IMG/VR virus record: IMGVR_UViG_3300005336_000019
Location: 1-64,000 of that record
Length of the DNA: 64,000 nucleotides
Origin: a virus
Lineage: Duplodnaviria > Caudoviricetes
Direction: 5' to 3' (one strand)
A program made the translations under genes and the position numbers. The notes under the pieces were generated by a model. It was not told the origin of the DNA, searched no databases, and saw only the letters and a list, made by a program, of their open reading frames with translations. Below are positions 50,155 to 53,086 of the stretch, one piece after another (the first letter of the stretch is position 1; each line of letters opens with the position of its first letter).

Positions 50155-50298
50155 TTTTCCTTTTCCTCTCCGATACGAGAATGCGGGGGTCGCCTACTAC
50201 GACCGCAGGGGATCTTTCACCAGGAGAGCTGCCACGCAGATCACTGGAGTTGGCCTCACCCTGCCCAAGCGGAGTAAGGATTTCCGCAGGCACCGCCG

Positions 50299-50371
50299 TG
50301 CTCCTGGCAGGAATTGAACCTGCGACATCCGGATCCGGAATCCGGCGCTCTATCCCCTGAGCTACAGGAGC
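50299..50371 (-). tRNA. tRNA-Arg(CCG)
   Basis: Cloverleaf; anticodon arm CCGGA-TTCCGGA-TCCGG; no encoded CCA. Confidence 0.93.
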
Positions 50372-50380
50372 TTTCCTCTC

Positions 50381-50776
50381 TCACCAGATGTCGTACAGCA
50401 TCCGGCGAGGAACCTTCTCGGCCTTCTCGTACAGCCGACGTTCGAGTTCGCCCTTCGTGCGGCGCCCGGCTTCCAGCTTGCTCTTCACGTAGCGCCGGTT
50501 GGCGCGCTCGTGCTTACCAGCCCAGTAGGTCCGGCTGGAACTGGGGGTCCAGGCCCCGGTGTAGGTCCACCAGCGAGCGGTACGCCTCACCTTCCGGGGC
50601 TGCGGCCTGCGGCCCTGCCTCTCGGCGTCACGGAGTTCCGCAGCGCTGTAGCGCAGGTCGTAGACCTCGTGCTCGCGCACCGGAGTGATCGGCCGCTTGC
50701 GCCAGTACATCCTGTAGCCGTCAGGCCAGTCGCGCTGGTCGAACTTTCCGGGCGTGTGATGCGTCGTCTTGCCCAT
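50381..50776 (-). CDS. basic Arg/Trp-rich hypothetical protein within the tRNA cluster
   Basis: RBS AGGAGG; ends ...RMLYDIW. Confidence 0.8.
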   Translation of the reverse strand: MGKTTHHTPGKFDQRDWPDGYRMYWRKRPITPVREHEVYDLRYSAAELRDAERQGRRPQPRKVRRTARWWTYTGAWTPSSSRTYWAGKHERANRRYVKSKLEAGRRTKGELERRLYEKAEKVPRRMLYDIW

Positions 50777-50877
50777 CGGAATTCATCCTCCTAGGGCCGC
50801 GAATTTCGCGGACCTAGGTGAATCCGGTGACGATGTCCATCACCCCTCCAAGCTGTTCAGGCACGGTTGTTCCCAAG

Positions 50878-50975
50878 TGCGCGAGGCAGGGATCGAACCT
50901 GCACTGGACGTCTCCACAGGGCCTTTCCGAGTGCCCTGTTCGCCGGGCTCTGACTCGGAGTTCCCTTACACGCGC
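50878..50975 (-). ncRNA. tRNA-like RNA with aberrant D and anticodon arms
   Basis: Acceptor GCGCGTG/CTCGCGC; canonical T arm GCAGG-TTCGATC-CCTGC; 10-nt anticodon-position loop. Confidence 0.75.
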
Positions 50976-51066
50976 GACCGCACTGCGCAATGCGGTCCTT
51001 TACCACCGACTGTAATTCCGACCGGGTTTTTCAGACCACGGAAGGATATGGTGTCGTCGGCACACG

Positions 51067-51139
51067 CTCTCCTGACTGGACTTGAACCAGTAACATCCGG
51101 ATTAACAATCCGGCGCTCTGCCGGTTGAGCTACAGGAGA
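51067..51139 (-). tRNA. tRNA-Asn(GTT)
   Basis: Cloverleaf; loop TTGTTAA. Confidence 0.95.
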
Positions 51140-51274
51140 TCGAATCTGAAATTGTAGTGGGCCTCATCCCTAGCACCACGCGGCGCACCGACCTTGTTCT
51201 GCTGCGCTTCTCAACTGTTCCGGTTGTCGGGCGGATGGCAACCGGACCGCACTCCTATCTCCGCCACGTGCACG

Positions 51275-51346
51275 CTCCCCCGTCTGGACTTGAACCAAAA
51301 CTTCCGATTCCAGAGACCGGCGGTCTGCCAATTAACCTACGGGGGA
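51275..51346 (-). tRNA. tRNA-Gln(CTG)
   Basis: Cloverleaf; loop CTCTGGA. Confidence 0.93.
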
Positions 51347-51459
51347 TCGCTCTTGAATTGTTGGCAACCGGACGGCAATGCTTCCACGCATGGACTATCT
51401 TCGCATGTATGTCCCACCCGCCACAGTGGGGCTGCGTTGATAGCTTACCGTCCGGCCAG

Positions 51460-51535
51460 TGGCCCCGGCCCGATTTGAACGGGCGACCTCTCGCTTTTCA
51501 GGCGAGCGCTCTTTCGCGAACTGAGCTACAGGGCC
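51460..51535 (-). tRNA. tRNA-Phe(GAA)
   Basis: Cloverleaf; loop CTGAAAA. Confidence 0.93.
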
Positions 51536-51686
51536 TTGCACCCCTTGATGTATAGCTGGGCAGGGGCCGCCCTCCACTCGCCTCCCGGAGAAGGTTGGCT
51601 CATGGACTCGCTTTGCCTCACTCTCTGCCCGGTGGATAGTGGCCTTGTGAGCCACGAACTCCACCGGAATCTGCCTCCGAAGCCAG

Positions 51687-51760
51687 CGGTCCCGACGGGA
51701 TTTGAACCCGCGACCTCTCGGATGACAACCGAGTGCTCTGCCGAACTGAGCCACGAGACC
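51687..51760 (-). tRNA. tRNA-Asp(GTC)
   Basis: Cloverleaf; loop TTGTCAT. Confidence 0.95.
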
Positions 51761-51855
51761 ATTGCTTCTTACCGCTGTTGAGTTGAAAAGGGAGCCCCGC
51801 TTTCCCGGCCTCCGCCTTACGGCGGGGCTCCCGATAGACCCGTCAGGGGGTCTCG

Positions 51856-51929
51856 TGGAGATGGAGGGATTCGAACCCCCGTCCTTCCGATCCGTAGTCG
51901 GCTGCCCCATCCAACTGGGCCACACCTCC
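51856..51929 (-). tRNA. tRNA-Arg(ACG)
   Basis: Cloverleaf; loop CTACGGA. Confidence 0.93.
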
Positions 51930-52019
51930 ATCAGCCTTTCACCCTTCGCGCCAAGCGTGACCAAGGCAGGATCCAGGCCGACCGCATCCAAGCCCCAGGA
52001 AGCCGTGAGGATGCGGCAG

Positions 52020-52092
52020 TACGCCCTACTGGACTTGAACCAGTGACACGAGGATTAAGAATCCCCTGCTCTGCCAACTGAGCTAAGGGCGC
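52020..52092 (-). tRNA. tRNA-Lys(CTT)
   Basis: Cloverleaf; loop TTCTTAA. Confidence 0.95.
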
Positions 52093-52099
52093 GCGTTCT

Positions 52100-52222
52100 T
52101 CAGTTCTGTCTGTCGTCCTTGGGGCCCCAGTAGTGGCCCGTGTAGACGTGGACGGGGTATCCGTCCTTCTGCACCTTCTTCAGGTGCCCTTCGTACGTCC
52201 GAGCCTTGCACTTACAGCTCAC
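52100..52222 (-). CDS. small hypothetical protein (40 aa, MSCKCKARTY...)
   Basis: RBS AAGAAGGT before GTG. Confidence 0.6.
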   Translation of the reverse strand: MSCKCKARTYEGHLKKVQKDGYPVHVYTGHYWGPKDDRQN

Positions 52223-52378
52223 GATCGCACCTTCTTTCTTGTCCCGATTCCAACAGGAACCCCTGGTTTCCCGGGACAGCGTTCCACCAGGGGTCTGCCT
52301 AGCGTCCGGCCGGTTCTGTCCTCCCGATCCTTCTGCTGGCATACGGCTTACGGATTATGAGTCCGCGCCGCACCTTCG

Positions 52379-52452
52379 TATCCCTGACTGGACTTGAACC
52401 AGTGGCCTTTCCCTTATGAGGGGAGTGCTCTGACCGACTGAGCTACAGGGAT
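52379..52452 (-). tRNA. tRNA with CAT anticodon (elongator Met or Ile2)
   Basis: Cloverleaf; loop CTCATAA; lacks initiator hallmarks. Confidence 0.92.
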
Positions 52453-52457
52453 CTGCG

Positions 52458-52530
52458 AGCCCCCGACCGGAATTGAACCGATGGCATCCGACTTACGAAG
52501 ACGGCGCTCTACCGACTGAGCTACGGAGGC
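52458..52530 (-). tRNA. tRNA-Thr(CGT)
   Basis: Cloverleaf; loop TTCGTAA. Confidence 0.93.
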
Positions 52531-52798
52531 ATGAACTCCGGGTCCTAGGAGGGACGCAGACTTGCATGGGATAGCGAGCTGAGAAACAACGCTAGGCCCC
52601 GGAGTTCTGTCGGGAGAATCCTGCCCGATCTTTAATCGACCACCCGCTGGATCGATGGACAGGTTCCTCCCTTTGCGAGACACCAACCTCGCGATTCCCA
52701 GGCTGTAGACCTGGCGGCAGCGGGAACTGCGGACTCCGGGCGGAGTGGACGACGTCGTAAGGGAAAGAGGTACTTCCGATACGCCGCCCGGAGTCCAG

Positions 52799-52873
52799 TC
52801 GGAATGGCGGGATTTGAACCCGCGACCTCTCGCTCCCGAAGCGAGTGCTCTACGCAAGCTGAGCCACATTCCG
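52799..52873 (-). tRNA. tRNA-Pro(CGG)
   Basis: Cloverleaf; loop TTCGGGA. Confidence 0.95.
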
Positions 52874-52922
52874 ATTGAAGGTTCCCCAGGGTGACGGGGG
52901 GGTTGTAACCCCGGGGAACCAG

Positions 52923-52997
52923 CAGGGATAGCAGGATTTGAACCTACGACACGCCGCTTTGGAGACGGCTGCTCTGGCCGAACTGAGCTATATCCCT
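52923..52997 (-). tRNA. tRNA-Trp(CCA)
   Basis: Cloverleaf; loop CTCCAAA. Confidence 0.95.
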
Positions 52998-53086
52998 TTG
53001 CCCGCCGGGAAGGTTTCCCCTCCCGGCTACAAGTACTACTCTACCGCAGAACTTCGCTATCTCATAGCGGTTTTCGGTGACGAGCC

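Follow-up and report, generated by a model that had tools for sequence, protein, structure and literature searches.

The locus described here raises the question of why a phage tRNA array would carry, directly behind a complete tRNA gene, what looks like the anticodon arm of another tRNA and nothing else of that molecule. The window, by which we mean the whole 64-kb stretch of DNA that was analysed, is part of a 76.5-kb viral record, and on its minus strand 11 tRNA genes called by ARAGORN are arrayed from 52997 to 50298. The original prediction, made from the letters alone, described a free-standing stem-loop with a CAU anticodon behind the tRNA(CAT) of this array, and proposed a decoy for anticodon nucleases or modifying enzymes from which the phage's own tRNA, having an altered stem, would escape. 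The features concerned are these:

52378..52452, minus strand: phage tRNA(CAT), called by ARAGORN and scored at 69.4 bits by the Rfam tRNA model; of its CCA end only C74 is encoded
52374..52377, minus strand: linker GAAG between C74 of this tRNA and P1, reading CGAAG together with C74
52341..52373, minus strand: hairpin P1, consisting of a 7-bp outer helix and a 5-bp inner stem with the loop CUCAUAA, and having an AA bulge on the 3′ side

Read from 52373 to 52341, the minus strand is GUGCGGC-GCGGA-CUCAUAA-UCCGU-AA-GCCGUAU, letter by letter as first described; two of the seven outer pairs and one of the five inner pairs are G-U. The inner stem (GCGGA/UCCGU) indeed differs from the anticodon stem of the adjacent phage tRNA (CUCCC/GGGAA, the first pair of which is a C-A mismatch), and the hairpin has neither the D nor the T arm that were reported missing, nor an acceptor stem or CCA. 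Its inner part has the form of an anticodon arm in the tRNA family (RF00005), with a 5-bp stem and a 7-nt loop in which the second letter is U and the triplet is followed by a purine. As a whole tRNA the region was rejected, as ARAGORN made no call at 52241-52377 and no Rfam tRNA hit was found there at E values up to 10; ARAGORN found no tmRNA either. The minimum-free-energy fold of 52380-52335 includes the P1 rod, at −16.5 kcal/mol, yet 9 of 200 shuffled sequences folded equally well (z = −1.92) and 14 rods of the same shape, as defined in our own script, were counted on the two strands of the window together, so the structure of P1 by itself could be a product of chance. What sets it above chance is threefold: the rarity of CTCATAA, which occurs twice in 64 kb with both strands counted, both times inside the tRNA array; conservation with compensatory changes; and identity with a host tRNA arm.

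Conservation was assessed among relatives of this virus. The window is related to Streptomyces phages of about 185 kb, namely Kela and JustBecause (each about 87% in the region) as well as Quantum, Satis, Kradal and EhyElimayoE, and a blastn search with 52380-52225 matched 6 of 50,697 phage records, these six alone, with 92.9% identity for Kela and JustBecause and 76.6% for the remaining four. Pattern scans of IMG/VR, one giving five loci and another eight of which three were unrelated coding DNA, added five contigs as members. A metagenome scan added three distinct sequences (L218, L219 and L222, the last cut at its 5′ end); its nine loci also comprised the contig of L004 again (L217), L219 again (L221), three unrelated sequences and a weak match of 19 bits (L216). 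Looser patterns did not extend this set: the covariance model, run on 51 of 56 IMG/VR loci and the window, returned no new member; a script applied to a pattern with at least 120 loci found two members among the matches listed, both already known; and among 71 loci of a further pattern the model, run on 66, returned none. With the same model exactly one copy was found in each of the seven related phage records searched, no copy in phage Gilson, and nothing significant in three Streptomyces genomes (best score at most 16 bits). Weaker second hits inside the array, at 19.7 bits and below, begin in the T arms of tRNAs and are taken to reflect tRNA likeness and GC-rich spacer hairpins. The members found form a small lineage made up of the Kela/JustBecause and Quantum/Satis types and their uncultured relatives.

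P1 was kept in all 11 full-length relatives, with each of its 12 pairs formed throughout (100% of cells paired), and in the alignment fitted to the model 5 of the 12 pairs are changed on both sides. Variation is distributed unevenly along the rod: the pairs at its base (G-U, U-A, G-U, C-G) and the G that follows never vary and upper pairs do, in the inner stem three pairs, those in the middle, are invariant among members, and the pair that closes the loop is A-U, C-G or U-A. The loop reads CUCAUAA in 10 of 11 full-length rows, the exception being the contig L006 with CUCAGAA, which indicates that the third letter of the "anticodon" can change and that the CAU triplet is not absolutely fixed. 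Related phages retain P1 through compensatory changes, so P1 is not a scar in decay; the possibility that the hairpin is a recombination scar of a tRNA gene, allowed for in the original prediction, does not agree with pairing that has been maintained in this way.

The alignment also revealed that P1 is not free-standing. Conservation begins directly after the discriminator of the upstream tRNA (CGAAG...) and stops at ...GGGAC (52241), delimiting an element of ~138 nt (52378-52241, minus strand) of which P1 is the 5′ domain; the coordinates first given thus cover the first third of the real feature and no more. The consensus fold has three helical domains, P1, P2 and P3, and the parts beyond P1 are:

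52297..52340, minus strand: P2, a hairpin with internal loops and an apical loop that holds a conserved GGACAGA, from consensus folds
52256..52298, minus strand: core of 43 nt, GCAGACCCCUGGUG-R-AACGCUGUCCCGGGAA-R-CCAGGGGUUCC, which holds P3
52295-52286 with 52267-52258, minus strand: P3, a 10-bp helix in the core with an 18-nt loop
52272..52277, minus strand: GUCCCG, part of the P3 loop and, by inspection, a candidate for the 5′ strand of a pseudoknot
52241..52246, minus strand: CGGGAC at the 3′ end of the element, candidate 3′ strand of the same pseudoknot

P2 comprises two helices of five and six pairs, four of which are changed on both sides. In the core, the 12 rows (11 distinct) agree at 41 of 43 positions, the two varying positions are both R, and the pairs of P3 are invariant but for one U-G/U-A change. 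The GGGAC at the 3′ end is likewise invariant, and the letter before it is C in 9 of 11 distinct rows and otherwise G or A. A pseudoknot between the core and the 3′ tail is possible in the model, its candidate strands GUCCCG and CGGGAC being paired in 97% of cells with zero covariation; CUGUCC (52279-52274), which overlaps GUCCCG, is also complementary to GGACAG in the P2 loop (52321-52316), and from the letters GUCC might alternatively pair with that loop instead of the 3′ tail. Because these letters are invariant, neither pairing draws support from covariation.

For the structure as a whole, 97.8% of 417 cells are paired and nine pairs are changed on both sides, counts that come from an alignment fitted to the model, with 11 distinct rows, few in number and related to one another. 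None of 500 shuffles reached the observed covariation and slid controls were paired in 26-48% of cells; the fold energies are not exceptional on their own (z about −1.9). The sole long ORF across the element (80 aa) is broken in Quantum, where ATG is followed by TGA, and frameshifted in L005. Since this ORF is not conserved and the G-U pairs work on the tRNA-sense strand only, selection acts on RNA of that strand, and the element is a structured non-coding RNA of ~138 nt in tRNA sense.

This conclusion bears on the possibility that P1 is a tRNA leftover without RNA function and that the core is a site acting at the DNA level, for example an inverted repeat to which a protein binds, a site of recombination or a promoter for the sigma factor of the phage. 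Within the core, a perfect 10-bp inverted repeat and the palindrome CCCGGG are indeed both without variation, and the identity of P1 to a host tRNA described below (22 of 24 positions), together with a further tRNA-like 3′ fragment in the same array, would fit a leftover. A scar would be expected to decay, however, and P1 and P2 keep their pairing through nine double-changed pairs, including strand-specific G-U pairs; moreover, the boundaries of conservation coincide with RNA helices. A simple scan found no promoter-like site, and the single terminator-like site (plus strand, 53054-53070) lies outside the element and is matched in number by shuffled sequences. We therefore regard this explanation as very improbable.

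No known RNA family accounted for the element. Scanning 51900-52700 against Rfam at E values up to 10 returned three tRNAs and weak tRNA look-alikes only, and a scan of the whole window at gathering thresholds returned the 11 tRNAs only. YrlA was discarded, its only hit (23.7 bits against a threshold of 69) lying on the tRNA-Thr and tRNA-Met genes and off the element. A hammerhead-like reading was rejected by hand, and a brief likeness between the 3′ strand of P1 and the domain V motif of group II introns was dropped, as it is not kept in Quantum and has no Rfam hit. In the three Streptomyces genomes, the covariance model and BLAST found no homologue or antisense target beyond the tRNA arm. 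The element is a new RNA at the level of a family, of a broadly known kind, the small tRNA-related RNAs of phage tRNA operons.

Its position in the operon is more constant at one end than at the other. In all members for which 5′ sequence is available it begins 4 nt behind C74 of the upstream tRNA, but the identity of that tRNA differs: it is tRNA-Met in the window, L004, L007, L008, L219 and the Quantum type, and tRNA-Thr(CGT) in Kela, JustBecause, G005, L218 and G004, so that placement behind the CAT tRNA, as first described, is not general. The linker GAAG is invariant among members except for a change of A to C in L006, and the same linker stands behind tRNA-Thr in the Kela-type phages. 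Two features follow in the window:

52100..52222, minus strand: ORF of 40 codons with a GVG start and the Shine-Dalgarno sequence GAAGG, outside the conserved RNA
52019..52092, minus strand: tRNA-Lys(CTT), the next gene of the array (ARAGORN)

The 40-codon ORF occurs only in window-type and Kela-type phages, where it corresponds to the hypothetical protein Kela gp196, and its product matched no family in PHROG. It is absent in Quantum, in which tRNA-Lys begins 8 nt after the end of the element, and G004 has a different and unrelated ORF of 37 codons, hydrophobic in its product, in its place. As the downstream genes differ, the constant partners of the element are the tRNA array and the upstream tRNA end rather than any coding gene. 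Between 100 and 185 kb, the annotation of Kela lists neither an enzyme that modifies tRNA nor one that repairs it. The array holds at least one more spacer of this sort, the one between Pro and Thr (Pro-Thr spacer) being conserved as a structured RNA as well, from which structured spacers may be a general feature of the array with a role in processing.

The fixed distance to the tRNA end raises the possibility that the element is a cis-acting module that shapes the maturation of flanking tRNAs, either as a new self-cleaving ribozyme near the tRNA 3′ end or as a tRNA-like handle for RNase P or RNase Z. In addition to the constant start and linker (L006 excepted), whichever tRNA precedes, several observations agree with such a role: P1 varies in its upper pairs but neither at its base nor in the G behind it, the invariant core may form a pseudoknot, the structured Pro-Thr spacer offers a parallel, and the dimensions of a 7+5-bp rod with a 7-nt loop match those of the minihelix formed by acceptor and T arm. 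Theta ribozymes are described at distances of up to 5 nt from tRNAs of phages, in many cases tRNA-Met (PMC10879173), and P1, starting 4 nt after C74, falls within that distance; as described there, they also share with the element a 7-bp first helix opened by G-U, and a pseudoknot, which in the element is possible (PMC10879173). The element is about twice the size of theta ribozymes, however, and has no Rfam hit.

The HDV-like topology in particular does not fit. HDV-like and theta ribozymes have the strand order P1-P2-P3-L3-P3′-P1′-P1.1-P4-J4/2-P2′, with a nested double pseudoknot. Their J4/2 opens with a cytosine that is catalytic and conserved (PMC10879173). Mapped onto P1, this strand order leaves only 0-2 nt between the 5′ strand and the inner stem, with no room for a P2 strand, and mapped by inspection onto the core it leaves 6-8 nt for P3 and L3; the letter before the terminal GGGAC, where the catalytic C would fall, varies between C, G and A, and the 5′ mapping leaves J4/2 undefined. 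No ribozyme family of Rfam was hit even at E values up to 10. A processing handle, for its part, would need neither an invariant loop of anticodon type nor an exact copy of a host arm. On balance we consider a cis-acting processing module rather unlikely, although not negligibly so.

The likeness of P1 to a host tRNA is exact where it is found. The inner arm of P1, GCGGACUCAUAAUCCGU (17 nt), matches, letter for letter, nt 27-43 (the anticodon arm) of a Streptomyces CAU tRNA, with which it shares the 5-bp stem including G27-U43 and the loop CUCAUAA with U33 and A37. In a scan of one genome per prokaryote species, the 17-mer GCGGACTCATAATCCGT was found at at least 120 genome loci; among the matches listed, 116 of 120 are tRNA(cat) genes called by ARAGORN with the 17-mer as their anticodon arm, and many lie in Streptomyces, mycobacteria and other Actinomycetes, with other phyla represented as well. 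Three Streptomyces genomes each contain three kinds of CAU tRNA:

type a: initiator type, anticodon stem CTGGG/CCCAG, mismatch at 1-72, 4-7 copies
type b: anticodon stem AGCGG/TCGCT, adjoins tRNA-Thr(GGT), one copy
type c: non-initiator, anticodon stem GCGGA/TCCGT, encoded CCA, one copy

The resemblance to an actinobacterial CAT-tRNA anticodon arm, as originally suggested, was borne out as 17/17 identity with type c of Streptomyces, and when the whole element was used as a BLAST query the type c gene was the best match in all three genomes, at 22 of 24 positions once extended into the variable region. The closest E. coli match of type c is a chromosomal CAT tRNA with the RefSeq label tRNA-Ile; type b matches the plasmid-borne tRNA-Ile better still, and its anticodon stem is the nearer to the E. 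coli one. Judged on these comparisons, type c could be either elongator tRNA-Met or lysidine-bearing tRNA-Ile2. Whereas the arm of type c is the same across many phyla, the P1 stem drifts by compensatory changes among the relatives.

This drift argues against a strict requirement for the copy. The inner stem is UCGGC/GCCGA in the Quantum type and UCGGU/ACCGA in L006, and for both no host arm within two mismatches was found in the three Streptomyces genomes, each having one chance match off the CAU tRNA genes. Quantum, Satis, EhyElimayoE and JustBecause were all isolated on S. lividans JI 1326; as phages with different inner stems (Quantum type and JustBecause) thus share a host strain, exact mimicry of the host is neither required nor selected. 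The exact identity seen in the window type may be best read as ancestry shared with a tRNA gene, or as one of several allowed states. Phage Gilson is informative in this respect: its tRNA(CAT), 81% identical to that of the window, is directly followed by a second CAT tRNA that is closest to host type c (74%), which suggests that P1 is a remnant of such a second gene.

One explanation for these observations, which we favor tentatively and with somewhat less than even confidence, is that the element is a stable RNA of the tRNA operon that presents a tRNA-derived anticodon limb to a partner reading CAU loops. The rod would descend from a second CAU tRNA gene that once stood behind the phage tRNA(CAT) and that would have shed both the D and the T arm, along with the acceptor end, and been put to a new use. 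The element would be transcribed together with the tRNAs and released by tRNA-processing enzymes of the host, namely by RNase P acting at the next tRNA and by trimming of the 3′ end of the previous one, in a manner that would parallel the release of the species I and II RNAs from the tRNA precursor of phage T4. To our knowledge, the function of these two T4 RNAs is unknown, and we know of no copy of an anticodon arm in them. Once freed, the RNA would be a competing ligand for a reader of CAU anticodon loops, which might be an anticodon nuclease, TilS or another modification enzyme, or a synthetase through its anticodon-binding domain; because it has no acceptor end, the limb could be bound but neither charged nor used in decoding. 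The invariant core would act as a second module for binding or folding, and as conservation is strongest there and not in the anticodon-like arm, the arm may be accessory.

The T4 RNAs are comparable in their setting. They are small non-tRNA RNAs inside a phage tRNA cluster, produced from the same precursor (PMC2330249), and in this they are like the element; the hosts and phage groups are unrelated, however, and the likeness drawn here is one of description.

The decoy for VapC-type anticodon nucleases envisaged at the outset would be a special case of an RNA presenting its limb to a reader of CAU loops, and we think it unlikely. The same holds for a somewhat wider formulation, in our view also improbable, by which the element is a natural decoy consisting of an anticodon limb without an acceptor end on an invariant scaffold, soaking up a host factor that reads CAU loops, whether a defence anticodon nuclease or TilS. 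The copy of the target stem-loop is exact in the window type (17/17), as a decoy would have it, but it is inexact in the Quantum and L006 types; Quantum, Satis and EhyElimayoE, whose isolation strain is that of JustBecause, carry UCGGC/GCCGA, for which the three genomes gave no host arm within two mismatches, and L006 has the loop CUCAGAA. Furthermore, P1 forms the 5′ domain of a larger RNA that is most conserved outside this domain, and it is not tied to the CAT tRNA of the phage. The corollary that this stem-altered tRNA would escape while the hairpin is attacked does not fit either, given that the phage tRNA(CAT) is closest to host type b (73%, against 58% for type c) and the hairpin copies type c. 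Phage tRNAs that evade anticodon nucleases of the host share with the element the theme of tRNA clusters answering tRNA-targeting defence, but those tRNAs are described as complete and as replacing the cleaved host tRNAs, whereas the element is partial (PMC10264068, PMC11555353). In the literature on phage tRNAs and tRNA-targeting defence, part of which was available as excerpts, we found no acceptor-less anticodon-limb decoy.

An additional scenario is that the element is a cis-regulatory leader, resembling a riboswitch or a T-box-like tRNA sensor, that controls what lies downstream. Such a leader could present the triplet AUA followed by A (AGA followed by A in L006) from its loop to a tRNA anticodon; AUA and AGA are rare codons in high-GC hosts, and a single loop change turns one into the other. 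The invariant UGGU would pair with the NCCA end of a tRNA or, alternatively, with RCCA inside P3, and GUCC, with two possible partners in the P2 loop and the 3′ tail, has by inspection a switch-like appearance. A Shine-Dalgarno sequence and a small ORF come 10-20 nt after the end of the element in most members. The Quantum-type phages have no such ORF, however, tRNA-Lys following 8 nt on; the downstream ORFs are unrelated to one another; and the switch pairings show no covariation. The features that define a T-box are absent as well. The T-box bulge is given as a 7-nt 5′-UGGN-ACC-3′ between helices A1 and A2 (PMC7583486), but in the element UGGU is followed by GRAACGC instead of ACC, lies inside or at the end of P3, and has no A2 helix; the F-box CCGUCA, which in T-boxes goes with a Stem II S-turn and a Stem IIA/B pseudoknot, is missing from the element in the window row and no such motif was seen in P2 by inspection. 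The T-box family (RF00230) gave no Rfam hit at E values up to 10, and the element is followed by a small ORF or a tRNA instead of an aminoacyl-tRNA synthetase gene. T-boxes, including the actinobacterial ileS type with a short Stem I, do share with the element a hairpin that presents a triplet, a UGGN motif and a pseudoknot, which in the element is a possible one, yet they have a specifier loop with an S-turn (PMC7583486) where the element has an anticodon loop. Taken together, we judge a leader quite unlikely.

The current view of tRNA clusters in phages is that they serve as weapons in a conflict about host translation and tRNA-targeting defence, and attention has so far centered on complete tRNAs and, recently, on adjacent ribozymes. 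This locus adds a third kind of tenant, a conserved structured RNA belonging to no known family, whose first domain copies the anticodon arm of a host tRNA alone. If the RNA is stable and binds a reader of CAU loops, it would offer an example, open to direct testing, of a phage that mimics part of a tRNA; if it instead cleaves or guides processing, it would be a new RNA module linked to tRNAs. In both cases it is a small, defined and mutable element in phages that grow on Streptomyces strains kept in the laboratory. Should the decoy proposal hold true, AUG/AUA decoding would be protected or reprogrammed during infection, and this would be the first phage counter-measure to mimic part of a tRNA rather than supply a replacement tRNA.

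There is weak evidence that the element is expressed. Contigs from RNA libraries of four runs in three studies cover it, and one contig of 156 nt is identical over 52264-52413; these contigs come without ends, strand or level, from libraries that can contain DNA, and the parts they leave uncovered are uninformative.

One last observation concerns L006, which alone carries both a change in the linker (A to C, giving CGACG) and a change in the loop (U to G). Jointly, the two would turn an A-U contact into C-G. A direct pair between linker and loop within one molecule is unlikely since the positions sit at opposite ends of a 12-bp rod, and the paired changes may reflect either coincidence or a contact between molecules.

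The RNA element is kept while the small ORFs at the spot downstream of it are exchanged, as seen when the window is compared with the related IMG/VR record G004.

Window 52100–52222, minus strand: 40-aa ORF containing Cys and His residues in a CxC...H...H spacing
G004, locus L214:1650–1763: 37-aa hydrophobic ORF (MRKVLMDILDAW...) with a GGAGAGG Shine-Dalgarno sequence in front

The second of these occupies the place of the first, and the two are unrelated. The related Streptomyces phages Kela and JustBecause keep the 40-aa ORF, with both synonymous and non-synonymous changes. It matched none of the PHROG families, and its residue spacing makes a small zinc-binding protein a possible product.

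Two further features of the tRNA array lie in spacers between or behind its genes.

Window 51790–51832, minus strand: GC-rich hairpin of 11 bp with a 21-nt loop, between tRNA-Arg(ACG) and tRNA-Asp
Window 50877–50975, minus strand: tRNA-like 3′ fragment in the 694-nt spacer 3′ of tRNA-Asn

The loop of the hairpin ends in CCGGGAAA, and UUUUC comes after the hairpin. In shape and in the end of its loop it is like P3, the helix in the core of the element, and the covariance model built from the element gives it a score of 19.7 bits, which is in part due to the adjoining T arm. A terminator-like hairpin is one possibility, a related module another. The fragment has a T arm (GCAGG-TTCGATC-CCTGC) followed by an acceptor-like strand and AC, and was called by neither ARAGORN nor Rfam; a possible 5′ partner lies approximately 90 nt upstream, and the ORF just downstream is a positional homologue of Kela gp203.

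The spacer between tRNA-Pro and tRNA-Thr (52531–52797, minus strand), in which no ORF was noted, is a second conserved structured RNA of the array. RNAalifold, applied to the sequences from the window, Kela, the related phage Quantum and G004, predicted 36 pairs, 12 of them changed on both sides; these include a hairpin of approximately 15 bp, and the 3′ end of tRNA-Pro takes part in a predicted long-range helix. On its 3′ side, the spacer has approximately 70 nt extra in the window.

Across the array (50298–52997), a C follows the discriminator in all 11 tRNA genes, but the complete CCA is not encoded in any of them, so that the phage tRNAs rely on trimming of their 3′ ends and on the CCA-adding enzyme of the host.

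Streptomyces phage Gilson has a pair of CAT tRNA genes that stand back to back with no spacer (L226:1194–1343). In the second gene of the pair the D arm is odd and pair 1–72 is mismatched; the host CAU tRNAs closest to this gene are types c (non-initiator) and a (initiator). Each of three Streptomyces genomes carries 4–7 copies of the initiator-type CAU tRNA and one copy of each of the two non-initiator types.
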